Source: Spirochaetota bacterium (lineage in GTDB: Bacteria > Spirochaetota > B62-G9 > DRHN01). Taken from it: 40,497 nt of DNA. This document shows positions 12,014 to 31,567 of the stretch, piece by piece. A program made the translations under genes and the position numbers. Within the stretch, counting starts at the first letter, position 1. Each line of letters opens with the position of its first letter. A model generated the notes under the pieces. It was not told where the DNA came from. It saw nothing but the letters and a program-made list of their open reading frames with translations, and ran no database searches. The stretch is taken from assembly GCA_011049595.1 (NCBI GenBank), contig DRHN01000450.1, forward strand, positions 1 to 40,497, given 5' to 3'.

Positions 12014-13954
12014 TTAGTTGTTGTTTATTTTTCTCCATAATGTTGTTCGGCCGATACCGAGTTTTTCAGCGGCAGCCGTTTTATTACCATTTTCTTTTTG
12101 AATCACTTTTTCAATTATTGTTCGCTCGATATCTTCCAGACTACCCATTAAAGGAATCCTTATACTCTTTTGAGGCGTATCAAAACCGTATCCGTCATCA
12201 ATGCCTAAGATTAATTTGCTGCCCGGCAACGATTTTAAAACAAACTTTACATTTTTGGCAGTTATGTAACCTTCCTTTGTTTTTACCATAAGTCTTTCAA
12301 TTATATTTTCCAGTTGTCTGATATTACCCGGCCAATTGTAATTCATTAACAGCTGCGTCCCCTCTTTGGAAATGCCTTCAATAACAATCTTAAATTTATG
12401 TGTGTATTTCCTGACAAAATAGTTTGCCAATAATGGTATATCAATTTTGCGCGCGCGGAGAGGTGGAAGGTTTATGTTTAACACATTGATTCTATAGTAA
12501 AGATCTTCTCTAAATGTATTACATTCAATCAGAGAATAAAGGTCTTTGTTCGTTGATGCTACTACCCGGACATCTACGTGAGTCAATTTATTGTCTCCCA
12601 GCCTCCTTACCTTTCGCTCCTGAATAACACGAAGCAGCCGGGATTGTAAATTAATCGAAATTTCACCAATTTCATCAAGAAATATTGTGCCCTCATGCGC
12701 CTGTTCAAAAAGACCCATTTTACCTTTTTTATTTGCCCCTGTAAAAGCTCCTTCCACATACCCGAAAAGCTCGCTTTCAAGAAGGTTTTCCGGAAGGGCC
12801 GCGCAATTTACCGCCACAAAAGGTTTATTCTTTCTCAGACTCACATTGTGAATCGCCTGAGCAAATAATTCTTTTCCGGTTCCAGTTTCACCATATATCA
12901 GTATGGGAGAATCTACCTGAGCGTAATTCCTGGCCTCCTCCTTTATATATAATATCACTTCGCTTTCCCCGATGATGTCATCGAAACTATTCTCTGCTGT
13001 ATGCCCCTTTAAATATAACTCCTCCCTTATCTTTTGCTCCACCTTCTGTATTTGAGAGACTTTTTGGAATGTAACTATTACTTTGACTATTTCTTTGTTG
13101 ATAATGATTGGAATAACATTAGCCACAATTTTTATACCATCTATTGCCCAGACCTTGCCTTTTGACGTACAGCCGTTTTGAACGGTATTCAACAGATCCA
13201 TACCTGGAAGAACTTCCCCAATGTTTTTTCCAATAACTTTATAAGCTTCCTTGTTAAAAATTTCTTCCGCCCTCGGATTAAAAGTATCAATAACGCCCGC
13301 CCGGTTAATGCTGATAATGCCTTCATAAGCGTAATCTATAATGGTCTTTACCCGTTTCGCCTTTTCGCTTTCCTGCCTTTTAACCTTCAGGACCCGCTCG
13401 GCTTCAAAAAGAGCCTGTATAAGAGCTTCTTTCCCTGATCTGATCAGCAGAGCATTCAATCCTAATTCTTTGGCTGTTTTAACAGAAATAGTATCCCCAA
13501 CAACCCAATTAATACCCATCTTCTTAATATCTTCAAGTTTGGTTTTAATACTGTCTGTATGATGGAAACAATCAAAGTCCAGCGTTATGACATTGAGCTC
13601 AATATTAAAAATATCTCCCAGGTCTTTGATTCCATCTGTGAACGGATTAAAACCAACGATTGCAATTTTATCTGTATGCTCTTTGGCCTGCTGCAGCACA
13701 CGTATCAAATCAAACCCGCTGACCTGTATTTCAACCACAGAAAGATTTATCAGCTCCCCTTTCATCGCTGCGGCAGTTCCCCCTCTGCTTATAACAACAT
13801 CAAAGCCCTTCTCTTCAAGCTCTACCGCTTTTCGAACTCCTTCATCGAGATCTCCTATCTCAATGTGAATGTCTTTTTTAAGTTCTCTGCACACATCATC
13901 AAACAATTCAGCCAATTTTTTATACGGCGCAATAAAAGCTATCGGCTTTGTCAT
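12014..13954 (-). CDS. Sigma-54-dependent activator (PrpR_N + PAS + AAA+ + Fis HTH)
   Basis: N-terminal VVISRGGTA (PrpR_N type), PAS segment, GETGTGKE, ESELFGY..GAFTGA, FLDEIGE, WPGNIRQL and C-terminal LGIGRTTLWRK. Confidence 0.93.
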   Translation of the reverse strand: MTKPIAFIAPYKKLAELFDDVCRELKKDIHIEIGDLDEGVRKAVELEEKGFDVVISRGGTAAAMKGELINLSVVEIQVSGFDLIRVLQQAKEHTDKIAIVGFNPFTDGIKDLGDIFNIELNVITLDFDCFHHTDSIKTKLEDIKKMGINWVVGDTISVKTAKELGLNALLIRSGKEALIQALFEAERVLKVKRQESEKAKRVKTIIDYAYEGIISINRAGVIDTFNPRAEEIFNKEAYKVIGKNIGEVLPGMDLLNTVQNGCTSKGKVWAIDGIKIVANVIPIIINKEIVKVIVTFQKVSQIQKVEQKIREELYLKGHTAENSFDDIIGESEVILYIKEEARNYAQVDSPILIYGETGTGKELFAQAIHNVSLRKNKPFVAVNCAALPENLLESELFGYVEGAFTGANKKGKMGLFEQAHEGTIFLDEIGEISINLQSRLLRVIQERKVRRLGDNKLTHVDVRVVASTNKDLYSLIECNTFREDLYYRINVLNINLPPLRARKIDIPLLANYFVRKYTHKFKIVIEGISKEGTQLLMNYNWPGNIRQLENIIERLMVKTKEGYITAKNVKFVLKSLPGSKLILGIDDGYGFDTPQKSIRIPLMGSLEDIERTIIEKVIQKENGNKTAAAEKLGIGRTTLWRKINNN

Positions 13955-18922: not shown

Positions 18923-19972
18923 TTAATAAGTAAGCAGCTCTTGTACCGCCTGTACGATATGATGCTTTTGAGGAAGAACTGCTTCTTCCAGGGGATTCGT
19001 ACATTTTTTCAATTCATCAGATAACGCCGGTATGGCTCCGTAGCCGCCACCTTCTCCGGTACGTGTCAGGCTGAACGGTATAGGGGTATTTTTTGCAGCT
19101 ACAATCTTAATCGGCGCTTTCAACGACTTAAAAGCCTTTTCAGATACAATGCTTGAAATGTGCGCTCCGTATCCACCGCGCCTCACAGCTTCATGTGCTA
19201 TAACTAAACGTCCGGTCCTGCGAACCGAATGGAGGATCGCTTCTTCGTCCGTCGGAACAAGGGTACGGAGGTCGATTATCTCGGCGCTTATCCCTTCAGT
19301 TTCTAAATCCTCGGCTGCATCTATGGCAAAGTTCACCATATCCGACCAGGAGACGATCGTAACATCCTTACCTTTTCGCCTCACATTTGCAACACCCAGG
19401 GGAACAGTGTAATCACCTTCAGGAACAGGGCCTCTACTGTTATATAGCATTTTATGTTCTATAAAGATCACGGGGTCATCGTCACGTATAGAAGATAACA
19501 AAAGCCCCTTTGCATCAGCCGGAGTTGAGGGCATTACCACTTTCAGTCCGGGTATGTGGCAGTAAAGAGCTTCAAGACACTGGGAATGCTGGCAACCGAC
19601 AGACACACGGCCCCCTTCCTGCATCCTGATCACCATTGGAACTGAAGACTCTCCTCCTGTTATATAACGGATCTTTGCTGCACGGTTCATTATATGATCC
19701 ATTCCAAGTGTCGAAAAATCAATATACATGATTTCAAAAACCGGACGCATACCCGCTAAAGCGGCCCCAACAGCTGCCCCGGAGATAGCCTCTTCACTCA
19801 AAGGGGAATCTATCACCCTATCTGATCCGAATTCCTCCCACAACCCTGCCAGGACCATAAAGGTGTTGCCTAACCGGCCTATATCTTCACCCAAAAGAAA
19901 AACGCGGTCATCCTTCAACATCTCAAATCTTATTGCTTCTCTTATGGCCTCTGATCCCTTGATCTCTCTCAT
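18923..19972 (-). CDS. ThDP-dependent dehydrogenase E1 beta subunit (AcoB/PdhB-like)
   Basis: GEDIG, DSPLSE, RPVFEIMY, QHSQCLE and IDLRTLVP motifs. Confidence 0.92.
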   Translation of the reverse strand: MREIKGSEAIREAIRFEMLKDDRVFLLGEDIGRLGNTFMVLAGLWEEFGSDRVIDSPLSEEAISGAAVGAALAGMRPVFEIMYIDFSTLGMDHIMNRAAKIRYITGGESSVPMVIRMQEGGRVSVGCQHSQCLEALYCHIPGLKVVMPSTPADAKGLLLSSIRDDDPVIFIEHKMLYNSRGPVPEGDYTVPLGVANVRRKGKDVTIVSWSDMVNFAIDAAEDLETEGISAEIIDLRTLVPTDEEAILHSVRRTGRLVIAHEAVRRGGYGAHISSIVSEKAFKSLKAPIKIVAAKNTPIPFSLTRTGEGGGYGAIPALSDELKKCTNPLEEAVLPQKHHIVQAVQELLTY

Positions 19973-20095
19973 GGTCCCGTAGCCTCATGTGAACAACCTG
20001 TATATTTTAGCACTCAAATATTCCTGTCTGCTAGACAGAACTTCAATATTAATGTACCAACCCCTTCTCCCGTACCGTAAAAAAAAACGCACAAA

Positions 20096-21058
20096 TTATT
20101 TTTCCACGCCAAAAACATCTTTCAGCGCTATTTCAACATCAGGAAAGGGAGATCTCAGAGCATATTCAACCGCCTTCTCAATCTCCTCATCGATTTCCTT
20201 TTTCATATCGTTGTGGGCATCTTTACTAAGTAACCCGTTTTCTTCAAGAGTTTTTGCAAACGCTTTTACCGGGTCCTTTTTACGCCACATTGCAATTTCT
20301 TCTTTAGATCTATAGGTTTGCGGATCACCCTCCCGGTGGCCGCGCAACCGGTACGTTGTTATTTCCAAAAGTGTTGCACCATTGCCTTTTCTTGCCCGGT
20401 CTACCGCTCTACAGCCGGCTTCATACACTGCAATGGGATCATAGCCATCGATTTTCTCACCGGCAATGCCAAAGGCCTTAGCACGTGCTGAAAGACCGGG
20501 TTTTGCAGTAGATATTTCAGTATGGGTTGAAATTGCATAGAGATTATCTTCAAGAATCAGCAAAATAGGAAGCTTCCATAATGATGCCATATTCATTGCT
20601 TCATACAGGCACCCCTGATTTGCAGCCCCGTCTCCGAAAAAATACGCAGACAGATCACCATTTTTTTGAAGTTTCTGAGCAAGAGCCGTGCCGACCACAG
20701 GGCCAAACCCGCCTCCTACAATCCCATCAGCGTAAACATTGACATCAGTAGCAATAACATGCATATGGCCACCCTTGCCATGATTGTACCCCCACTCTCT
20801 CCCAAAAACCTCCGCAAGTACTTTATCCATCCGAGCCCCTTTTGCAAGAAGATGCCCGTGTGCGCGGTGAGTGCTGAAAACAAAATCCGGATCCCGCAAG
20901 TGAATACACACCCCGGATGCGATTGGTTCCTGGCCGATATACAGGTGTATGTGCCCGGGAATAAATCCTTCCGCGTAGAGTTGGATACATTTCTGCTCAA
21001 ATCGTCTTATTCGAAACATCGATTTATATAATAAAATCTGTTTTTCAGGATCTATCAT
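20096..21058 (-). CDS. ThDP-dependent dehydrogenase E1 alpha subunit (AcoA/PdhA-like)
   Basis: IRRFE, HLYIGQE, STHRAHGH, GKGGHMH, GDGAANQG..EDN and TYRLRGH motifs. Confidence 0.92.
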   Translation of the reverse strand: MIDPEKQILLYKSMFRIRRFEQKCIQLYAEGFIPGHIHLYIGQEPIASGVCIHLRDPDFVFSTHRAHGHLLAKGARMDKVLAEVFGREWGYNHGKGGHMHVIATDVNVYADGIVGGGFGPVVGTALAQKLQKNGDLSAYFFGDGAANQGCLYEAMNMASLWKLPILLILEDNLYAISTHTEISTAKPGLSARAKAFGIAGEKIDGYDPIAVYEAGCRAVDRARKGNGATLLEITTYRLRGHREGDPQTYRSKEEIAMWRKKDPVKAFAKTLEENGLLSKDAHNDMKKEIDEEIEKAVEYALRSPFPDVEIALKDVFGVEK

Positions 21059-21134
21059 TGCAGAAAAATCCCCCTGATGGACACAGAAATACGTTTAATA
21101 TCAAAGTTATTATATAAATTATTAGTGAAATAAC

Positions 21135-21150
21135 TGCAAAATTAATGCCA
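21135..21150 (-). promoter_or_regulatory. Sigma-54 (-24/-12) promoter
   Basis: Minus strand TGGCA-TTAATT-TTGCA with canonical spacing, about 77 nt upstream of the E1 alpha start. Confidence 0.88.
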
Positions 21151-21445
21151 ATTTAATTTTATTTATTTCAAAGTGCTAATCCGAGCTTGACCGGCTGATC
21201 CACATTTTCAAATAATTCAAGATTTTTTTAAATGTTTAATTGACCAAATATAATGAGTTATAAAGAATTAATAAAATATTGTATTCTACGCCTGAATACA
21301 CATTGAAACTATTTTAGCAAACCTTTAATATACAATTAATAATACAGATACGTGTCCACGGGCCTGTCATTTTTTCGAAAAAGACAGCTTAATGGCCTGA
21401 AATAATACATTTCATATTAATCTTATAGAAACCTATCTTTTTCTA

Positions 21446-21480
21446 TGTTTCAAAATAAAAAGGTGTTTCAAAAAGAAACG
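21446..21480. promoter_or_regulatory. Tandem degenerate copies of the TGTTTCA-N3-TGAAACA enhancer
   Basis: TGTTTCAAAATAAAAAG (21446-21462) and TGTTTCAAAAAGAAACG (21464-21480). Confidence 0.6.
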
Positions 21481-21546
21481 GTTCACTATAATCATTATTT
21501 CAAATAAATATCACAAATGAATTTAGACATTTTAATTTAGTCACTT

Positions 21547-21574
21547 ATTATACCAATATTATAAAAACTGTCAA
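21547..21574 (-). promoter_or_regulatory. Consensus sigma-70 promoter facing left
   Basis: Minus strand TTGACA-N16-TATAAT with a TG extended -10 (TGGTATAAT). Confidence 0.65.
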
Positions 21575-21829
21575 GTAAATATTTTCATTTTATTTTCTTG
21601 TAAATGAAAATTTATATTGATATTTTTAACTCCATAAAATATATTAAAATTTATGTTCGTATTAATTGTTTTATATTAAGAATTTACTACTTTATTGTTA
21701 ATCTATTTTATATTTTTCATTTAAACATTTTCATAATATAATATGAAAAACGGAAATATATATTAATACCAGCGCAACTCTTTTTATCAAGCAGATTTAA
21801 TCGGTAATTAACAAAAAAACGATCACAAA

Positions 21830-23400: not shown

Positions 23401-24381
23401 ATGGATGATGTTTCTGAATTGAGATCATATGAACCTCAATTTTTAAAAAGCATTTTAAAAAAAATGGTAATGATCCGTGAATTCGAACTAAAAATCAACA
23501 GGCTGTTTCTTCAGGGAATGCTGCCCGGTACTATTCACCTGTCTCATGGTCAGGAGGCAACAGTTGTCGGGGTATGCGAGGCATTGAACACAGACGATGT
23601 CATAACAATCACACACCGAGGACACGGACAGGCGCTTGCAAAAGGTGTTACTCCGAAAGAGCTCATGGCCGAGCTTTTTGGTAAAAAAACCGGATGCTGC
23701 AAGGGTAAAGGAGGCTCTCTTCATGTAGGCAAAATGTCTGTTGGGGCTTTACCGGGAATTGCTATCGTGGCAGCTTCCGCACCCATTGCTTCTGGAATGG
23801 CCCTGGCATTTAAACAGAAAGGTTCAAAACAGGTATCTGTATGTTTTCATGGGGATGGCGCAAGTAACGAAGGCGATTGGCATGAGGCATTAAATCTAGC
23901 CGCTGTTTTCAAACTTCCTGTAATCTTCCTGTGTGAAAACAACCTTTACGCTGTCACAACCCATATAACTACTGTAACTTTGGTTCCTGATATCGCAAAA
24001 CGGGCCGGAGCATATGGAATTCCGGGAAAATCCGTGGATGGCAACGACCCGGTTGAAGTTTTCAAAGCTGCTAGCAGGGCAGTTGAGCACGCCAGGGGAG
24101 GGAAGGGGCCTACATTGCTTGAGTGTAAAACCTACCGGCAGGGCGGTCATAAACGTGATGACCCAGCGACTTACAGACCAAAGGAAGAAGTAGCTGCCTG
24201 GCTTGCTAAAGACCCCATTAAATGTTTTCAAGAGAAGTTAATGAAACTGGAAATAGTGGCCCCTAAAGATCTGGAAGTTATAAGACAGAGTGTTCTCGTA
24301 GAATTAAACGAAGCGGAGAAATTCGCGAAGGGAAGTCCGTTCCCGGAAGTAGAATCAGCCGCGGAGGGTGTCTATGCCTGA
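23401..24381 (+). CDS. ThDP-dependent dehydrogenase E1 alpha subunit
   Basis: IREFE, HLSHGQE, THRGHG, GKGGSLH, GDGASNEG..ENN and TYRQGGH motifs. Confidence 0.92.
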   Translation: MDDVSELRSYEPQFLKSILKKMVMIREFELKINRLFLQGMLPGTIHLSHGQEATVVGVCEALNTDDVITITHRGHGQALAKGVTPKELMAELFGKKTGCCKGKGGSLHVGKMSVGALPGIAIVAASAPIASGMALAFKQKGSKQVSVCFHGDGASNEGDWHEALNLAAVFKLPVIFLCENNLYAVTTHITTVTLVPDIAKRAGAYGIPGKSVDGNDPVEVFKAASRAVEHARGGKGPTLLECKTYRQGGHKRDDPATYRPKEEVAAWLAKDPIKCFQEKLMKLEIVAPKDLEVIRQSVLVELNEAEKFAKGSPFPEVESAAEGVYA

Positions 24382-25420
24382 ACCAAAAGGCAGAAATATC
24401 ACAGTTGTGGAAGCCATCCGGGAGGCTGTTACCCAGGAAATGAAAAATGATGAATCGGTGTTCATAATCGGTGAAGATATACGTATAGGCGGCTCTTTTT
24501 TATTTACATTAGGGCTGGTGGATAAATTCGGCCCGGATAGGATCATAGATATGCCTATATCCGAGTCCGGGTTCGTGGGAATGGCTATTGGCGCGGCCAT
24601 TCAGGGCCGCAGACCCATTGTGGATTTTCAGTACGGTGATTTTGTTTTGGAAGCGATGGATCAAATAATCCAGCAGGCTTCCAAGCTACATTATATGTCT
24701 GGAGGCCAGGTAAACATCCCAATTGTTCTTCAGATGCCGACAGGTGCTTCAGGCAGAGGTTCTCAACATGCGAACTCTGTAGAGGGTTTTTTCTTCCACA
24801 TACCGGGACTTAAATTGGTCACTCCATCCACCCCCTATGACGCAAAAGGTTTAATGATACGATCAATCAGAGATAATAATCCAGTTATGTTTTGTGTCCA
24901 CAAACACAACTACGGTAGCAAAGGCCGCCCTCTTTCAAATAGCACGATTGCAACCGGTCATGTCCCTCAAGAACCTTACACCATTGATTTTGGTAAAGCT
25001 GATATAAAAAGAACAGGAAAAGATGTTACAATTGTGTCAATTCTGAGAATGGTACACCTTTCTATCAACGCTGCTAAAGAATTACAAAAGGAAGGGATAA
25101 GTGCGGAAGTAATAGATCTTAGAACTCTTGTACCTCTTGATACGGAAACAATAATAGATTCAATTAAAAAAACACACAGGCTTGTGATTGTGCAGGAGGA
25201 CAACATGAGAGGGGGCTGGGGCTCCGAAGTGTCTGCAATTGTCGCTGAAAACGCACTTTCCTACCTTGACGCGCCTATTTTACGTGTCGCGTCTTTGGAC
25301 ACGCCTGTTCCTTTTTCACCGCTGCTGGAAGATATTGTAATTCCCAATGAAACAAGGATTATTAATACAGTCCGCACCCAAATGGATATGAATATAAAGA
25401 AGGATTTTAATGGTCAATGA
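24374..25420 (+). CDS. ThDP-dependent dehydrogenase E1 beta subunit
   Basis: GEDI, DMPISE, RPIVDFQY, SQHA, IDLRTLVPLD and DTPVPFS motifs. ATG 24374 after GGAGG overlaps the alpha stop. Confidence 0.92.
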   Translation: MPEPKGRNITVVEAIREAVTQEMKNDESVFIIGEDIRIGGSFLFTLGLVDKFGPDRIIDMPISESGFVGMAIGAAIQGRRPIVDFQYGDFVLEAMDQIIQQASKLHYMSGGQVNIPIVLQMPTGASGRGSQHANSVEGFFFHIPGLKLVTPSTPYDAKGLMIRSIRDNNPVMFCVHKHNYGSKGRPLSNSTIATGHVPQEPYTIDFGKADIKRTGKDVTIVSILRMVHLSINAAKELQKEGISAEVIDLRTLVPLDTETIIDSIKKTHRLVIVQEDNMRGGWGSEVSAIVAENALSYLDAPILRVASLDTPVPFSPLLEDIVIPNETRIINTVRTQMDMNIKKDFNGQ

Positions 25421-27079: not shown

Positions 27080-27739
27080 TTATTTAAAAATGTCCCCGGT
27101 TTCTTTGTACCAGAGCACAAAATCAAGATGGCTCAAAGGTATTTCCAGGCTTTCGGAAAACCCGGCCATTTTCTTCTCGATATTGAGATATTTTTTTCTT
27201 GACAGGCTTCCCGGGATTTCATCGATCACACAGCAGGCGTCCAGGTTCTTCAATATGTGTCTGTCCAGAATGGCGATATCGTCCCCGAAACCGATATTTC
27301 TCAAGAAATGGCCGGACTCTTTATAGCCGATACCTTTTACATTTGAGACAAACCATTCCCTTTTGTCGTACACGGAAGCATGTGCGCTGATTTTTTCTCT
27401 CAGGTTTATCCTCCCGCCCATTACAAACAGTTTTCTTGCCAGGTCTATGTATTTAGCTTTGTTGTTGCGGAAACGAACAATATTTAATTCGCCGGCGATC
27501 TGAGAAAGTGTGCCCTTAAAAAGGAGATTTTTCTGTAAAAGGTTTTTTACCGCCTTTTCGGCAGAGCGCGCCCGGGATGACGGTGTCAGAATACAAAAAA
27601 CCAGCTCCTGGAATATATCCTCATCACTGCCGTTTCTCCAAAGGGCGTTAAATTCTTCGAGCCTGTCTATGATCCGGGTTTTTATTTTTTTATATACGGC
27701 CATAATCTCTTCTATTGGAGTAAGATTTTTGCTATGCAT
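27080..27739 (-). CDS. ogg: 8-oxoguanine DNA glycosylase/AP lyase, OGG2 (archaeal-like) family
   Basis: ELVFCILT, RFRNNKAKYI, HhH VKGIGYKESGHFLRN, AILDRH, and C-terminal WY.ETG..FK ending in Lys. Confidence 0.9.
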   Translation of the reverse strand: MHSKNLTPIEEIMAVYKKIKTRIIDRLEEFNALWRNGSDEDIFQELVFCILTPSSRARSAEKAVKNLLQKNLLFKGTLSQIAGELNIVRFRNNKAKYIDLARKLFVMGGRINLREKISAHASVYDKREWFVSNVKGIGYKESGHFLRNIGFGDDIAILDRHILKNLDACCVIDEIPGSLSRKKYLNIEKKMAGFSESLEIPLSHLDFVLWYKETGDIFK

Positions 27740-27760: not shown

Positions 27761-28324
27761 TCATTCTACATCAAATTCTAATATCACACGCTCGCCTGCC
27801 ACGAGTGAATACTTCCCCTTTTCCAGGCCATCTATAAGCACACTCGGTTCGGTAACATGCCCATGGGCCTCTATTTTTTTGCCGTCAAGGTAAAAGAAAA
27901 AACTCTTTCCCTCGGCACGCGTAATTTCGGCACAAAATTTACCGCCTTTGTCGCCAAAGATGTCAACATTCATTACATCGGTTTTCAGCCTGTATATGAT
28001 TTTTTCTTCATCCCCTATATGCCCTAAAGTGCCTTTCAGTTCCAGAGGGACAAACAAATCCGGACCGGTTAAGTTTTTAATGATCCGGATCCCATCCTTT
28101 AACAGTTTAAAAACCGCCCTCCTGTGCATCAATCTCTCAGGAACATCCATCAGCTTCATCGAGTTCATCAGAAAAAGATCCTTCTCGAGAGCAAGGAGGG
28201 CCCCGGCGCACTCTTTACAGGCCAATATGTGCTCTGAAAACCTCTTTTCAGCCTCGTTTTCAAGAGCCCTGTCATAGTACAGGGATATATAATCCGGATC
28301 ATTAAAACGGCATTTCTTCATCAT
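27761..28324 (-). CDS. Soluble zf-HC2 (ZAS-like) putative anti-sigma factor with C-terminal beta-rich domain
   Basis: C-x7-ISLYYD..L......F.EHILACKEC (HxxxCxxC); no hydrophobic TM segment; overlaps the upstream sigma-like gene. Confidence 0.7.
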   Translation of the reverse strand: MMKKCRFNDPDYISLYYDRALENEAEKRFSEHILACKECAGALLALEKDLFLMNSMKLMDVPERLMHRRAVFKLLKDGIRIIKNLTGPDLFVPLELKGTLGHIGDEEKIIYRLKTDVMNVDIFGDKGGKFCAEITRAEGKSFFFYLDGKKIEAHGHVTEPSVLIDGLEKGKYSLVAGERVILEFDVE

Positions 28325-29168
28325 AGCGCTCCTTTAAAAAGTTTTGAACAGCACTCTTCGTTCGCATGATCCCGGTCGAAACCGTTCCTATTGGAAATCC
28401 CAAGAATTGCGAAAGACTCTCATAGGAAGGAGTTAATTTCACTCTTTTATATTCATCTAACACTTTATTCCTTTTTTTCTTTAATTTTTCCACCTCTATC
28501 TTATTATTTTCTTCCTGACTTTTTAATATGCCATAATAGAGATCGTTCAATCTCTGGAACAGCTTATTTTTGAGCCTGTATTTTTCCAGCATTGTGTTCC
28601 TGATCACGCTGATCCCGTTAAGAGATTCACGAAAGGATTTATCAAGATAAATAGATATAAAACTGATATCTTCAGGTCTTATGGTCTCGATAAAATACAG
28701 GTGAAAAAATAATCTATGTTTTTCCTTTAAATCTATTATTATTTCATTAATAAGCCTGTCAAACTTTAAAAATTCCCCGTAGTTTTTACCGTCACCGATA
28801 AAATTGTGCAGGCTTTGATTACTTTCATAGCCGTAATCAAATGAAACCGCCCCGCCCTGCTCTTCGACCCTGTTTTTCAGCTTTTTCCCTCTGACAAAAT
28901 TGAGGTACCTGTTCCTCAGAACGACGGTAAACCATGTGATAAATTTAACATCTGTTTCCCTGTATCCATTTAGTATGGCTTTCATTCTGGTAAGAACATA
29001 CTCAAAAAAATCCCCGCAGGTATCCACGCTCATGCCGAAAGCTACACGGGGGTAATTATATATAAAGTTGGACAGCATTTCGATCAAAAGGGTATAGCTT
29101 TTTTCATCACCCTTTTTATACAGTTTTACAGCCTCTTTGATCCTGCTGTCAGGCGGTCGACTTTTCAT
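28302..29168 (-). CDS. Atypical sigma-70/ECF-like RNA polymerase sigma factor
   Basis: Region 2-like KFITWFTVVLRNRYLNFVR; region 4.1-like LKEKHRLFFHLYF; region 4.2 SYESLSQFLGFPIGTVSTGIMR. Confidence 0.75.
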   Translation of the reverse strand: MKSRPPDSRIKEAVKLYKKGDEKSYTLLIEMLSNFIYNYPRVAFGMSVDTCGDFFEYVLTRMKAILNGYRETDVKFITWFTVVLRNRYLNFVRGKKLKNRVEEQGGAVSFDYGYESNQSLHNFIGDGKNYGEFLKFDRLINEIIIDLKEKHRLFFHLYFIETIRPEDISFISIYLDKSFRESLNGISVIRNTMLEKYRLKNKLFQRLNDLYYGILKSQEENNKIEVEKLKKKRNKVLDEYKRVKLTPSYESLSQFLGFPIGTVSTGIMRTKSAVQNFLKERYDEEMPF

Positions 29169-30513
29169 ATATTAACCGGCTTTCTCCAAATAATGAAAAT
29201 GCGAGGGGTACAGGGTTTTTTCCTGTGTATGATTCACACATAGCCCTGTTGAACGCGTACCCGATCTCGCAATTATTTATCAGCAGCTCGTAGAAACAAA
29301 GAACAAAATCGGTGACGCCTCCATCCGTGATCTTCCATCTTGATGAAACAACATTTTTCACACCCGCTTTAAGAAAACTCGACGCAAGCTTCAAAGTATT
29401 TCCGCAGGAGCATGAAAAGACCAGATGAGGGCATCGCTTTGCGCCCGCAATATCCAGGGCAGTAAAATGAGACTCTCCGAGGTCCCAGGCGGGTGACGAG
29501 TCATCCGGACTGCTGTGTCCGGAAAAATGTACTATGTCGTACTGTGAAAACCAATCGACCAGCCTGTCCTTTAGCCGGTCCCTTGAATAAAAATCAACAG
29601 ATATCCCCATTGCTGAAAAAAAATCATACAGCTTCAGCCCCTCATCATAAGCACCGCTGAAACTGCCTGAAGGGTCAGCAATGATAAGAACTCTTTTGAC
29701 CCTCGCAGTTTCGTGTCTTTTTCCTTCATCCCCTCGAAAAGCAAGAAAATTATTTTCAAAAATAAAAGCCCCGTCATAGGAAATTTCGAAAGGTATATCA
29801 TTTACCCTTGCATCCCCCGCTATGTATATACTGAATCCGCCTCTTGTAAACACTTTTTCAAGCCCTGTACCCCTGAATACGGCATCATAAACCAATCGGC
29901 CGATATCCTTCAGCGATTCTGTGTAATTTTCCATGTTCGAGGTCTGTAACAGGTTTTCCCCTATTTTCATTTTTCGCTCCAGCACAGACCGGAAATTTGC
30001 GGTCAACTTGAAGGTAAAATCTGAAAATTGGGTCCCCCTGTTGATCTCGATCACAGTTGCCCTGCCATCGTCACCTGAAAATGATATGTTTATGATCAGG
30101 GGGATTTTCTCGTTATTTACTTTATTGAGCTCTTCAAAAAATATGCTCTCATCTTTTTTCTTTAAAAAAAATGTATCCTCGCCCTTCTTAAATCCGGCAA
30201 AACGGAAAGGCAAACCCTTTTCAAAGACCTGTGAACAGTCCACCCGGGTACTTATGTAGTGATAATGGCTGCCGGTTTTCCCATATCCATTAAACGGCCC
30301 GGATTTCGGATTTTTCTCTTCATTCACGTCTTCCGAGCTTTTGATAAAAGGCCCGGCTATTTTCATGTTTTCAAAATCATAAAGAAATACAATGTCCCCT
30401 TTTCTCAGCTGGTAGATATTAAAACGTTCAATCAGGCTGCGCGGGATGCGGATCAAACCTGTCTTGAGGGTTTTAACAAGGTTGTTCTCATCAGTGTGTA
30501 TCAGATAGGCCAT
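29149..30513 (-). CDS. CHAT (caspase-like peptidase) domain protein with N-terminal DCD/EVE-like domain
   Basis: CHAT motifs IPFE, VLIIADP, DIVHFSGH, LVFSCSC, LASSFLKAGV..VVSSRW.I.D, FY..L and F.LFG. N-terminal QLRKGDIVFLYDFENMKIAGPF resembles DCD/EVE. Confidence 0.8.
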   Translation of the reverse strand: MAYLIHTDENNLVKTLKTGLIRIPRSLIERFNIYQLRKGDIVFLYDFENMKIAGPFIKSSEDVNEEKNPKSGPFNGYGKTGSHYHYISTRVDCSQVFEKGLPFRFAGFKKGEDTFFLKKKDESIFFEELNKVNNEKIPLIINISFSGDDGRATVIEINRGTQFSDFTFKLTANFRSVLERKMKIGENLLQTSNMENYTESLKDIGRLVYDAVFRGTGLEKVFTRGGFSIYIAGDARVNDIPFEISYDGAFIFENNFLAFRGDEGKRHETARVKRVLIIADPSGSFSGAYDEGLKLYDFFSAMGISVDFYSRDRLKDRLVDWFSQYDIVHFSGHSSPDDSSPAWDLGESHFTALDIAGAKRCPHLVFSCSCGNTLKLASSFLKAGVKNVVSSRWKITDGGVTDFVLCFYELLINNCEIGYAFNRAMCESYTGKNPVPLAFSLFGESRLIYEKSTA

Positions 30514-30527
30514 GGTTCCGTCAAAAT

Positions 30528-31157
30528 CTAAATTCCCCGTAAGTATAAGGGTTTTAAATACTTTTTTTCAGGCTTCAACCCGCAGGTTTCAGCAAGCCGG
30601 TACGCGTTTCGCGCGCTTGGATAGGCAAATACCGTTTTTATTTTAATATCAGTGTCATCCCGGATCATAATGCTCCTGTGATCTTTTTCCGATGATATAA
30701 GACATTCGGGGGCATTCTCTTTAATAAATGAAAAAAAATCTTCCCTGTTCAATGCAAGATAATCAGTTACGCTTTCCCCTTCTCTGTAGCAGGCAGTATA
30801 GACTTCCTGTCTTCCGGATCTTATGAACGGGATGGCCGAATTATAACATTTTCTTATTGCAAATGCAAGAAGGTCAAGTGAAGGTATACCGAGTATCGGA
30901 ATCCCCCGGACCTGACACATTGTGTTTGCAAAAGACAGACCTATACGTATTCCTGTAAAAGACCCCGGACCCATTCCGGCGTATATTTGTGTTATATCAC
31001 TTACCGGCCTGTTAATACTTTTCAACAAAAAATCAACAGCGTTGACTATATTCTGGGAGTGAGTTACATCATGCAGAAGTTCCAGACTGGCAATTTCGGC
31101 ATCCTGGAATATGGAAACGGAAAATGCTTTTGTGGAAGTTTCAATAGAAAGAATCAA
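30528..31157 (-). CDS. tsaB: tRNA t6A biosynthesis protein TsaB
   Basis: ILSIETS, HS, GMGPGSFTGIRIG and C-terminal PLYLR motifs. TTG start overlaps the tsaE stop. Confidence 0.93.
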   Translation of the reverse strand: MILSIETSTKAFSVSIFQDAEIASLELLHDVTHSQNIVNAVDFLLKSINRPVSDITQIYAGMGPGSFTGIRIGLSFANTMCQVRGIPILGIPSLDLLAFAIRKCYNSAIPFIRSGRQEVYTACYREGESVTDYLALNREDFFSFIKENAPECLISSEKDHRSIMIRDDTDIKIKTVFAYPSARNAYRLAETCGLKPEKKYLKPLYLRGI

Positions 31158-31567
31158 AATTCTTTCCTTTCAATCGAAATAGACCTGCATTCCTCATGGA
31201 TTCTGAATGAAATAATGATAAACCTGTTCAGTTTTTCTGCCATTTTCTCACCCCATTCTATGACCGTTACTCCCTCTTCGCTGTATAGATAATCCTCGAG
31301 AAGATCGTCCATCTCGGATATATTTTCGATCCTGTAAAAATCAAAGTGATAAAGATCCAGGCTGCCCTTATATATGTTCATAATTGAAAAAGAGGGGCTT
31401 GTCACATTTTCCCCGATATCGAGCGATCCGGCGATCCCCTTCGTAAACACGGTTTTCCCGCATCCCAGACCGCCGGTGAGCAGTACAACTTCTCCGCCTT
31501 TTAAAGTCTTTCCGAGATCCGATCCGTAATTGATCGTATCCATAAATGATTTTGATATATATTCCAT
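31154..31567 (-). CDS. tsaE: tRNA t6A biosynthesis ATPase TsaE
   Basis: GGLGCGKT, VTSPSF, HFDFYR and IEWGE motifs. Confidence 0.95.
   Translation of the reverse strand: MEYISKSFMDTINYGSDLGKTLKGGEVVLLTGGLGCGKTVFTKGIAGSLDIGENVTSPSFSIMNIYKGSLDLYHFDFYRIENISEMDDLLEDYLYSEEGVTVIEWGEKMAEKLNRFIIISFRIHEECRSISIERKEF

Follow-up and report, generated by a model that had tools for sequence, protein, structure and literature searches.

A DCD/EVE-CHAT fusion gene beside a sigma/anti-sigma pair in a marine-sediment spirochaete suggests a switch from nucleic-acid signal to transcription

We analyzed a window of 40,497 nucleotides (nt) of contig DRHN01000450.1 (assembly GCA_011049595.1) from a Spirochaetota bacterium (B62-G9; DRHN01); by the window we mean this whole stretch of DNA. 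An open reading frame (ORF) of 454 codons at 29149..30513 (-) encodes a protein of 454 amino acids (aa) that joins an N-terminal DCD/EVE-like domain of PUA-like fold to a caspase-like CHAT domain. It is followed by genes for an ECF-type sigma factor and for a soluble zf-HC2 protein predicted to be an anti-sigma factor. This arrangement suggests that the operon is a switch turning a nucleic-acid signal into a change of transcription. In the reading that we prefer, a ligand-gated CHAT protease would cleave the anti-sigma factor and free the sigma factor in the manner of Craspase, with a DCD reader in place of a TPR sensor; we put its chances at about even. The sigma/anti-sigma pair, which was absent from the first-pass annotation of this DNA, carries most of the mechanistic information.

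We searched 5.8 billion proteins with the 454-aa protein by a word-indexed method and found 34 matches at E<=0.001. Among them, 31 (P0002-P0032, E<=6.5e-59) form one family, of which 29 cover at least 98% of the query with 30-87% identity, and the remaining three, which are longer CHAT proteins, align over just the C-terminal 55-63% of the query. Pfam CHAT (PF12770) matches residues 204-433 (29215..29904, -; E 2.4e-12, 47.4 bits against a cut-off of 24), and NCBIfam gave no match for the protein. The sole PDB sequence match of the family profile was SAVED-CHAT 8tl0 (E 0.0023), in which the GHG and NAC motifs align with VHFSGH and FSxxCG of the family. The canonical catalytic His333 in VHFSGHS (codon 29515..29517, -) is thus aligned to the GHG His, and the catalytic Cys370 in FSCSCGNT (codon 29404..29406, -) to the NAC Cys. 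The protein passes the Pfam cut-off and has the His/Cys dyad, so it belongs to the CHAT domain family, which falls in clan CD of caspase-like proteases; its peptidase activity is a prediction.

The conservation of the dyad was followed in alignment A1, which holds the query and 30 of the 31 family members (the near-duplicate P0003 was left out). Cys370 is invariant in all 31 sequences, and His329 is invariant as well. His333 is kept in 28/31 and is replaced by R, R and K in P0011, P0012 and P0021, respectively. These three proteins have Arg or Lys at query position 333, yet they retain Cys370, His329 and the DCD domain; from their sequences, they may be pseudo-proteases. The first-pass annotation had proposed that the GHS and CSC contexts of the dyad could mean altered specificity. 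Both strings are present, but they are ordinary family variation, because GHS is the family consensus and position 368 is variable (S 23, N 4, C 3 and H 1 in the 31 sequences).

The fusion protein has no signal peptide and no transmembrane (TM) or other hydrophobic segment, and it is predicted to be cytoplasmic. It is the single CHAT match in the source genome, a draft of 521 contigs that is 89% complete. The full-length AlphaFold model has a predicted local distance difference test score (pLDDT) of 89.4 and a predicted template modelling score of 0.88. Foldseek matched this model best to Craspase TPR-CHAT/Csx29 (8d9f, E 1.3e-11; also 8eey), and further to separase 5fc2, SAVED-CHAT 8tl0, the anti-sigma factor DdvA 8rot (E 1.1e-6) and gingipain. 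Residues 135-203 (29905..30111, -) form a three-stranded beta-sheet and two long helices that run into the Pfam CHAT match (DSSP of the model). This region is also present in CHAT-only relatives: tblastn matches of the CHAT-TPR relatives described below begin at query residues 129-200, and homologues that have no DCD domain start in it. Two such natural homologues of 327 aa, P0030 and P0031, cover 70% of the query and begin right past residue ~130, so the domain boundary is real.

Residues 1-134 (30112..30513, -) form the N-terminal domain, the presumed ligand sensor. The first-pass annotation had described a PUA-like DCD/EVE domain here, fused to CHAT; the three peptide strings that it quoted are all present in the translation of 29149-30513 (-), and the profile searches, the fold and the Pfam CHAT match bear the fusion out. 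In the profile comparison that it proposed, the family profile and hhalign reach DCD, and the resemblance exceeds chance, although the single sequence stays below the Pfam cut-offs for DCD and EVE. We built a 23-sequence domain alignment (A3) from the query and 22 of the 28 other full-length members, leaving out six near-duplicates, and compared its profile with 1.84 billion cluster representatives. At E<=0.001 there were 34 matched proteins, 21 of which belong to the family itself or are its fragments. The closest relatives of the sensor domain are seven prokaryotic proteins of 160-311 aa (P0053-P0059; E 9e-11 to 1e-5). All seven lie above the Pfam DCD cut-off (34-47 bits against 27.8) and score 16-29 bits for Pfam EVE; their DCD domain is N-terminal, and 5/7 have a NucS_C-like PD-(D/E)xK nuclease match at E<=0.001. 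The hhalign comparison of A3 with these seven gave a probability of 98.8% and E 1.3e-16 over 132 of 134 columns. Three further proteins, P0060-P0062, were reached at E 2.5e-5 to 3e-4 and themselves match Pfam DCD strongly (E 1e-70 to 1e-85), and P0063 is a 442-aa CHAT protein carrying a distant version of the N-terminal domain. P0064 and P0065 were also matched and were judged marginal or spurious.

The family and the DCD-nuclease proteins have in common the motif E-x2-P-x2-G-P-[FW] and an aromatic [HF]-Y-x-Y strand, both of which are conserved within the family. Tyr3, Phe74, Tyr84 and Tyr86 are conserved aromatic residues that are also common to the DCD-nuclease family. The order of secondary-structure elements is identical in the N-terminal domain and in prokaryotic DCD/EVE domains. 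We predicted the domain structure with AlphaFold2 on A3 (pLDDT 91.2) and compared it by VIA-align with 48,161 PDB representatives. The best match was PH1033 (Z 13.7, root-mean-square deviation 2.1 Å, 117 residues), followed by Mmi1 YTH (11.4), VcaM4I EVE (11.1), YTHDC2 (11.1), ASCH (10.5), THYN1 (9.6) and the McrB N-domain (9.0); the 16 chains at Z>=8 are all EVE, YTH, ASCH or McrB-N. The top Foldseek matches were likewise all EVE, ASCH or YTH (TM scores 0.5-0.68), the first being the EVE-HNH restriction enzyme VcaM4I. The fold, beta-barrel-like with the order beta-alpha-beta...beta-alpha, superposes on solved EVE, YTH and ASCH domains, and its top matches include no non-PUA fold, the outcome that would have spoken against the first-pass annotation. 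The N-terminal domain is PUA-like, and its nearest sequence family is DCD.

Mean pairwise identity within the family is 0.426 for this domain, compared with 0.479 in the CHAT core and 0.358 in the stretch that separates the two. The domain is conserved about as well as the catalytic core and is therefore under selection. Its net charge is slightly positive, with a mean of +3.3 and values above zero in 19/23 sequences. The resemblance to these relatives suggests that residues 1-134 may read a modified base. Two wider comparisons gave less: a 9-sequence domain profile had chance-level TFIIF matches alone among PDB sequences (E 0.089 and 0.52), and an ESM Atlas feature search with residues 1-134 returned unnamed clusters at 0.93 and one at 0.92 with EVE on 15% of its members, which are leads only.

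It is also conceivable that the PUA-like domain no longer reads bases. It could dock onto the sigma/anti-sigma complex or act as an autoinhibitory cap, with some other signal, such as redox at the zinc anti-sigma factor, controlling the protease. PUA-like folds are multipurpose, and Lon N-terminal domains do appear lower in the fold list at Z ~4.5; the strongest matches, however, are base-binding EVE and YTH domains at Z 9-13.7, far above the Lon type. The subgroup P0024, P0026 and P0028 is without the conserved NPxxGPFNG...HY loop, natural variants without the DCD domain retain CHAT and sigma, and the C-H-C-C zinc site of the anti-sigma factor is invariant and of the kind described for DdvA (PMC11506125). 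On the other hand, the domain has retained the aromatic and loop motifs common with the DCD-nuclease family, and those nucleases have no protease or sigma partner to dock onto. We consider this explanation unlikely.

The preferred reading, in which the domain gates the protease, draws much of its weight from what lies downstream. The ECF-type sigma factor of 288 aa is encoded at 28302..29168 (-) and is matched by TIGR02937 sigma70-ECF (E 1.2e-12, 47.8 bits against 42.9); Pfam Sigma70_r2 alone scores 14 bits on this gene, under its cut-off. The zf-HC2 protein of 187 aa is encoded at 27761..28324 (-) and reaches 22.8 bits for Pfam zf-HC2 against a cut-off of 22.2. The sigma start overlaps the CHAT stop by 20 nt, and the anti-sigma gene overlaps the sigma gene by 23 nt, which implies coupled translation. 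Cys5, His32, Cys36 and Cys39 of the zf-HC2 protein are invariant in 8/8 sequences and include the H-x3-C-x2-C motif of zf-HC2. A linker that differs in length among sequences joins the zinc domain to a beta-rich domain at the C-terminus; the protein is a predicted anti-sigma factor that would bind sigma by the predicted zinc domain. We found no TM-like segment in the CHAT, sigma or anti-sigma protein, so that a cytoplasmic protease can reach the sigma/anti-sigma pair.

At about residues 46-72 the anti-sigma factor has a conserved DLFLMxSMKYxxLP stretch with an invariant Pro62, followed by the linker, which varies by up to ~20 residues among orthologues. Pro62 aligns with a nearly invariant Pro in the anti-sigma factors of the CHAT-TPR cassettes described below. 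We infer that this stretch may be a candidate cleavage or recognition site. A three-chain complex prediction of the CHAT partner, sigma and anti-sigma scored 0.77, 0.75 and 0.76. Replacing the partner brought the score down to 0.00 in both controls, but replacing sigma left it at 0.73, which kept the prediction short of its mark for support; the score may stem from the kept chain.

The arrangement is conserved within Spirochaetota. The full-length family comprises ~30 proteins of ~450 aa, is found in one order of Spirochaetota only and always follows tsaE-tsaB. Eight species-representative metagenome-assembled genomes of Spirochaetota have full-length relatives with 37-51% identity. In these loci tsaE-tsaB lies upstream in 8/8 and sigma downstream in 8/8; the anti-sigma gene is downstream in 7/8, the eighth contig ending before it, and ogg is downstream in 6/8, being missing in the truncated contig and in L002. 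When the domain profile was run on 401 genomes of the phylum, 23 of them matched, the source genome included. The domain was present in 13/16 other genomes of the same family and in 3/3 genomes of two sister families of the same order, gave weak matches (E ~5e-4) in 6/35 genomes of one genus in another family, and was found in none elsewhere. There is one gene copy per genome.

Two of these variations speak for the preferred reading. In the sister-family genome G022 the domain has diverged (E 4.7e-6), and the locus still has PilZ, tsaE, tsaB, CHAT (463 aa), a 285-aa ORF, zf-HC2 and ogg; the triad is thus kept in another family of the same order despite a diverged sensor. In G036 (95% complete) and G169 (71%), which are 2/3 genomes of one genus, the CHAT gene has no DCD part and still lies between tsaB and sigma (L102, contig G036:C34, 1498-2544, -; also G169:C226). 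These genes correspond to the 327-aa P0030 and P0031 and are clean cases of domain loss, so CHAT and sigma have been kept where the sensor was lost. The weak matches in the other spirochaete family stem from a more distant DCD-like/CHAT family of 430-434 aa, as in G183 and G213 (L094, G183:C1, 5082-6374, -; L096, G213:C1, 4682-5986, -). It matches the family by whole-length hhalign (98.2%, E 4e-14) and is without the NPxxGPFNG loop. An Amidase_2/PG-binding gene overlaps the 3' end of its gene, and TP_methylase and HD-domain genes come next.

Here, we also explored whether CHAT genes lie beside sigma factors elsewhere. A genome scan gave 72 further loci (L009-L080) from Omnitrophota, Planctomycetales and Desulfobacterota, which encode CHAT proteins of ~730 aa with 24-31% identity across the CHAT part. 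These CHAT-TPR proteins are the nearest CHAT relatives outside the family, in agreement with the first-pass statement that CHAT usually carries TPR sensors. We scanned four of them: three consist of CHAT (~70-350), a hydrophobic segment and a TPR array (~405-715), whereas the one from Desulfonema differs in its C-terminal half. In 62/72 loci, the one or two same-strand ORFs that precede the CHAT gene were compared with Pfam, the other ten loci having no complete upstream ORF. An ECF sigma factor (Sigma70_r2 or r4, E<=0.001) was upstream in 50/57 loci with two testable ORFs, and zf-HC2 was found in the immediately upstream ORF at 27/62 loci (E<=0.001). A TM-like segment occurs in 1/63 anti-sigma-sized ORFs of the CHAT-TPR loci. 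Examples of the cassette are L045:4652-8232 and L020:4631-8166, with an ECF sigma of ~200 aa, a soluble zf-HC2 anti-sigma of ~234 aa and a CHAT-TPR protein of ~730 aa. The window sigma has 288 aa against the ~200 aa of these cassettes, and the extra length is seen in all nine aligned orthologues; it appears to be a lysine-rich, coiled-coil-like insertion at ~residues 195-245, ahead of the final helix-turn-helix.

The coupling of CHAT with sigma and anti-sigma genes thus recurs across phyla. By hhalign, the window anti-sigma matches the CHAT-TPR-cassette anti-sigma at 98.6% (E 5.8e-16) over 161 columns that span the zinc domain and the C-terminal beta-domain, and the two sigma factors match at 97.0% (E 1.1e-10). 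PMC8999054 places CHAT proteins in the ECF54 gene context, at least in its available text, and the CHAT-TPR cassettes are possibly related to those proteins. Beyond that remark, no dedicated description of a sigma/anti-sigma/CHAT-TPR cassette was found in the papers searched.

These data allow the preferred mechanism to be laid out in steps. At rest, the anti-sigma factor would hold sigma. The DCD/EVE-like domain would bind a modified base, whose carrier could be a nucleoside or nucleotide, RNA (e.g., tRNA) or DNA. Binding would switch on the His333/Cys370 dyad of CHAT allosterically, and the protease would cut the anti-sigma factor, most plausibly in the variable linker past the zinc-binding, sigma-binding domain. 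The freed sigma would redirect RNA polymerase to its regulon, probably including its own operon and ogg. No ECF-type promoter common to the orthologues emerged when we compared the 250 nt ahead of the gene across 13 distinct loci. The best pair of -35/-10 words occurred in 5/13 loci, against 3-4 in shuffles, and its recurrence is probably due to coding conservation of tsaB. As for the ligand, the nearest domain relatives suggest by analogy a modified base in DNA, and the conserved neighbours suggest signals related to N6-threonylcarbamoyladenosine (t6A) or to oxidised bases.

Several observations weigh against this mechanism. For the sensor, residues 1-147 alone score 13 bits (E 0.088) for Pfam Dev_Cell_Death (PF10539) against a cut-off of 27.8, the full 454-aa protein has no Pfam DCD match at E<=1, and EVE (PF01878, cut-off 23 bits) does not match the N-terminal domain even at E<=10. 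The DCD-less variants imply that the sensor is dispensable for the core function of the module, and R/K at His333 in three of 31 sequences makes it doubtful that catalysis is always required, at least among those members. For the cassettes, the case for common descent comes solely from hhalign, because hidden Markov model searches missed the window genes: the CHAT-TPR sigma profile matched four other sigma genes of the source genome and not the cassette sigma, and the CHAT-TPR anti-sigma profile had no match in that genome. The sigma-sigma match could be generic ECF similarity. For the conservation, the surveyed genomes are kin and not independent samples, and the conservation of the triad within the order is partly shared ancestry. 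Synteny extends over all of the rseP-ogg segment, so being neighbours says little by itself. Neither sigma nor anti-sigma was found among the flanking genes scanned around the distant family of G183 and G213, and its link to an amidase instead indicates that the fusion does not always act on an anti-sigma factor.

The synteny and the distant family could also be explained if the protease had nothing to do with the sigma/anti-sigma pair. Its neighbours would then be inherited synteny, and its substrates would be others, such as the upstream translation or tRNA-modification factors or cell-wall enzymes; the end of tsaB lies just 14 nt from the start of the gene, and an Amidase_2 gene follows the distant homologues. 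However, the overlaps of 20 nt and 23 nt imply that CHAT, sigma and anti-sigma are translated in a coupled way, the link of CHAT with sigma and anti-sigma recurs with another gene order and another sensor in three other phyla, and the C-terminal domain of the anti-sigma factor is common to both types of cassette. We regard such a coincidence as very unlikely.

The neighbours of the gene are all on one strand and closely packed, in the order tsf, pyrH, frr, uppS, cdsA, rseP, DUF3108, PilZ, yihY, tsaE, tsaB, DCD-CHAT, sigma, anti-sigma and ogg. The t6A tRNA-modification genes tsaE (31154-31567, -; Pfam TsaE E 5.6e-33) and tsaB (30528-31157, -; Pfam TsaD-family E 9.8e-20) lie directly upstream. 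The 8-oxoguanine DNA glycosylase gene ogg (27080..27739, -; Pfam Ogg-HhH E 9.2e-56) begins 21 nt past the anti-sigma stop and is probably co-transcribed. The locus is a housekeeping region and not a defence island.

The setting raises the possibility that the module is a housekeeping sensor of nucleic-acid quality. The DCD domain would read a modified or damaged nucleoside tied to the neighbouring genes and would gate a protease that destroys the anti-sigma factor. Candidate ligands could be t6A in tRNA or its absence, a metabolite of the t6A pathway (tsaE-tsaB upstream), or an oxidised base such as 8-oxoguanine (ogg downstream). PMC7641849 reports EVE genes in a conserved tsaD operon of alpha-proteobacteria, so the adjacency to tsaE-tsaB is worth testing, though it is possibly inherited synteny. 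We advance this more specific version tentatively and judge it rather unlikely.

A defence function must also be weighed. The DCD domain might recognise modified bases in invading DNA and activate CHAT, either for a sigma-driven defence or for a broad degradation that leads to abortive infection. The DCD proteins nearest to the domain are fused to nucleases in the manner of type IV restriction enzymes (PMC7641849), the first Foldseek match of the domain is a restriction enzyme, and the known CHAT-sigma systems, namely Craspase, SAVED-CHAT/PCaspase and DdvA, are linked to defence. A recent preprint (10.64898/2026.01.15.699771) describes, in its available text, a PUA domain that senses N6-methyl-deoxyadenosine monophosphate (m6-dAMP) and activates an immune effector. 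However, the gene lies within a housekeeping stretch that is syntenic across the order, it is present as one copy per genome, and its distribution looks vertical and not patchy, as the survey counts given above indicate (13/16, 3/3 and a weak 6/35). No restriction, CRISPR or mobile-element genes were found among the window neighbours scanned, PADLOC gave no family at E<=1 for the CHAT, sigma or anti-sigma protein, and Rfam gave no match. An anti-phage role therefore seems distinctly unlikely to us.

Two candidate links of the locus with membrane proteolysis were rejected. rseP, 4 kb upstream, was considered as a part of the module, but its place in the ordinary uppS-cdsA-rseP cluster and the lack of a membrane helix in the anti-sigma factor speak against this. 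A role of the fusion as a periplasmic protease, or as a site-1 protease of a membrane anti-sigma factor, was dismissed because the three proteins have neither a TM segment nor a signal-like N-terminus. Elsewhere in the window, a 770-bp AT-rich spacer at 21059-21829 lies between divergent operons (GC content 0.26 in the surrounding 1 kb) and has no Rfam match. It is flanked by two paralogous E1 alpha/beta dehydrogenase gene pairs (18923-21058, -; 23401-25420, +). A PrpR-type sigma-54 activator is encoded at 12014-13954. The matches among sequencing runs are DNA contigs of marine and marine-sediment metagenomes, some of which may be the source of the window, with no RNA run among them; the source organism is a marine-sediment spirochaete.

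Our full-text literature search found no description of a DCD/EVE-CHAT fusion, and the word 'CHAT' occurs 0 times in the available main text of the EVE/DCD census PMC7641849, supplements aside. The fusion thus appears undescribed in the literature searched. The coupling of CHAT to sigma and anti-sigma factors is already known; what is new is a DCD/EVE sensor where the relatives have TPR. The known inputs of CHAT-sigma systems are RNA-guided complexes, cyclic oligonucleotides and unknown periplasmic cues, and a DCD/EVE-type input would be added here. If the preferred reading is true, the logic of a nucleic-acid signal leading to caspase-like cleavage and sigma release would extend past immunity. 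The system would be a compact, soluble one of three proteins, in which the ligand of a bacterial DCD domain could be found by a cleavage or reporter read-out, and the DCD-less variants, the His-less variants and the CHAT-TPR cousins would form a natural comparison set. If the quality-sensor version is true, the state of RNA or DNA modification or damage would be wired to a sigma programme. The module would then be a non-CRISPR, non-defence counterpart of Craspase and the first bacterial system to connect a DCD ('development and cell death') domain with a caspase-like enzyme. A domain named after plant cell death is here joined to a bacterial caspase-like enzyme, which bears on the prokaryotic roots of programmed cell death as discussed by Bell et al. 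(2020).

The EVE-tsaD operon of PMC7641849 resembles our locus in that an EVE-like domain lies in a conserved operon with t6A genes, slow-evolving and of housekeeping type. It differs in that EVE stands alone there and the gene is tsaD, whereas our domain is part of a CHAT fusion encoded behind tsaE-tsaB; this association has been seen in one order only and may be inherited synteny. Bell, Wolf and Koonin (2020, PMC7641849) read the DCD/EVE-PD-(D/E)xK architecture as modified-DNA recognition. The prokaryotic DCD/EVE fusions with PD-(D/E)xK, McrB or methyltransferases in that paper have an N-terminal domain homologous to ours. Unlike those fusions, the effector here is a protease and not a nuclease, GTPase or methyltransferase, and the context is a conserved housekeeping operon and not defence. 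The host here is also a member of Spirochaetota, whereas prokaryotic DCD is mostly archaeal or hyperthermophile in the available text of that census.

SAVED-CHAT/PCaspase of type III-B CRISPR-CBASS offers a precedent for a gated CHAT, since a nucleic-acid-derived ligand, cyclic tri-adenylate (cA3), binds the fused sensor and activates CHAT. Steens et al. (bioRxiv 2023.06.23.546230) report that PCaspase cleaves a putative sigma factor. Our system is unlike it in that the sensor there is SAVED, activation is by filament formation, the locus is a defence island and two proteases act in a cascade, so far as the available accounts of that system go. DdvA of Myxococcus xanthus is described in PMC11506125 as a CHAT-bearing anti-sigma factor. 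Like our module, DdvA-DdvS couples CHAT with ECF sigma and anti-sigma factors, the latter bearing a C-H-C-C zinc site, and our full-length model matches DdvA (8rot). The TPR-CHAT part of DdvA, however, is the periplasmic part of a transmembrane anti-sigma factor and its proteolysis is hypothetical in the available text, whereas here the predicted protease is separate and soluble and has a DCD sensor. The CHAT-TPR cassettes share with our module an ECF sigma factor and a soluble anti-sigma factor in which zf-HC2 is joined to the same C-terminal beta-domain, and their proteins are cytoplasmic. Their gene order is sigma, anti-sigma, CHAT, whereas ours is CHAT, sigma, anti-sigma; their CHAT domain comes first in the protein, ahead of a hydrophobic segment and a TPR array, and there is no DCD.

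Craspase is among the systems that supply the logic of the proposed mechanism. It differs from our module in several respects. Among the neighbours scanned there is no Cas7-11, CRISPR RNA (crRNA) or CRISPR context, Rfam gave no match, and the locus is not of type III-E; the window sigma matches the type III-E sigma model only faintly (E 0.0025, 17.8 bits against a cut-off of 100). Csx29 has a TPR domain docked on an RNA-guided effector and ~700 aa, whereas our protein has a fused DCD/EVE sensor and 454 aa. The inhibitor here is a zf-HC2 anti-sigma factor and not Csx30, and the setting is a housekeeping one. The likeness lies in the structure and in the logic. No structure matches the full-length model better than Craspase (8d9f), and Strecker et al. 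(2022, PMC10028731) report that Csx29 cleaves the sigma inhibitor Csx30. In Csx29-Csx30-CASP-sigma, as described there, a cytoplasmic CHAT protease triggered by nucleic acid cleaves a sigma inhibitor and so affects transcription, and the same chain of events is what we propose for the DCD/EVE-CHAT module of Spirochaetota.

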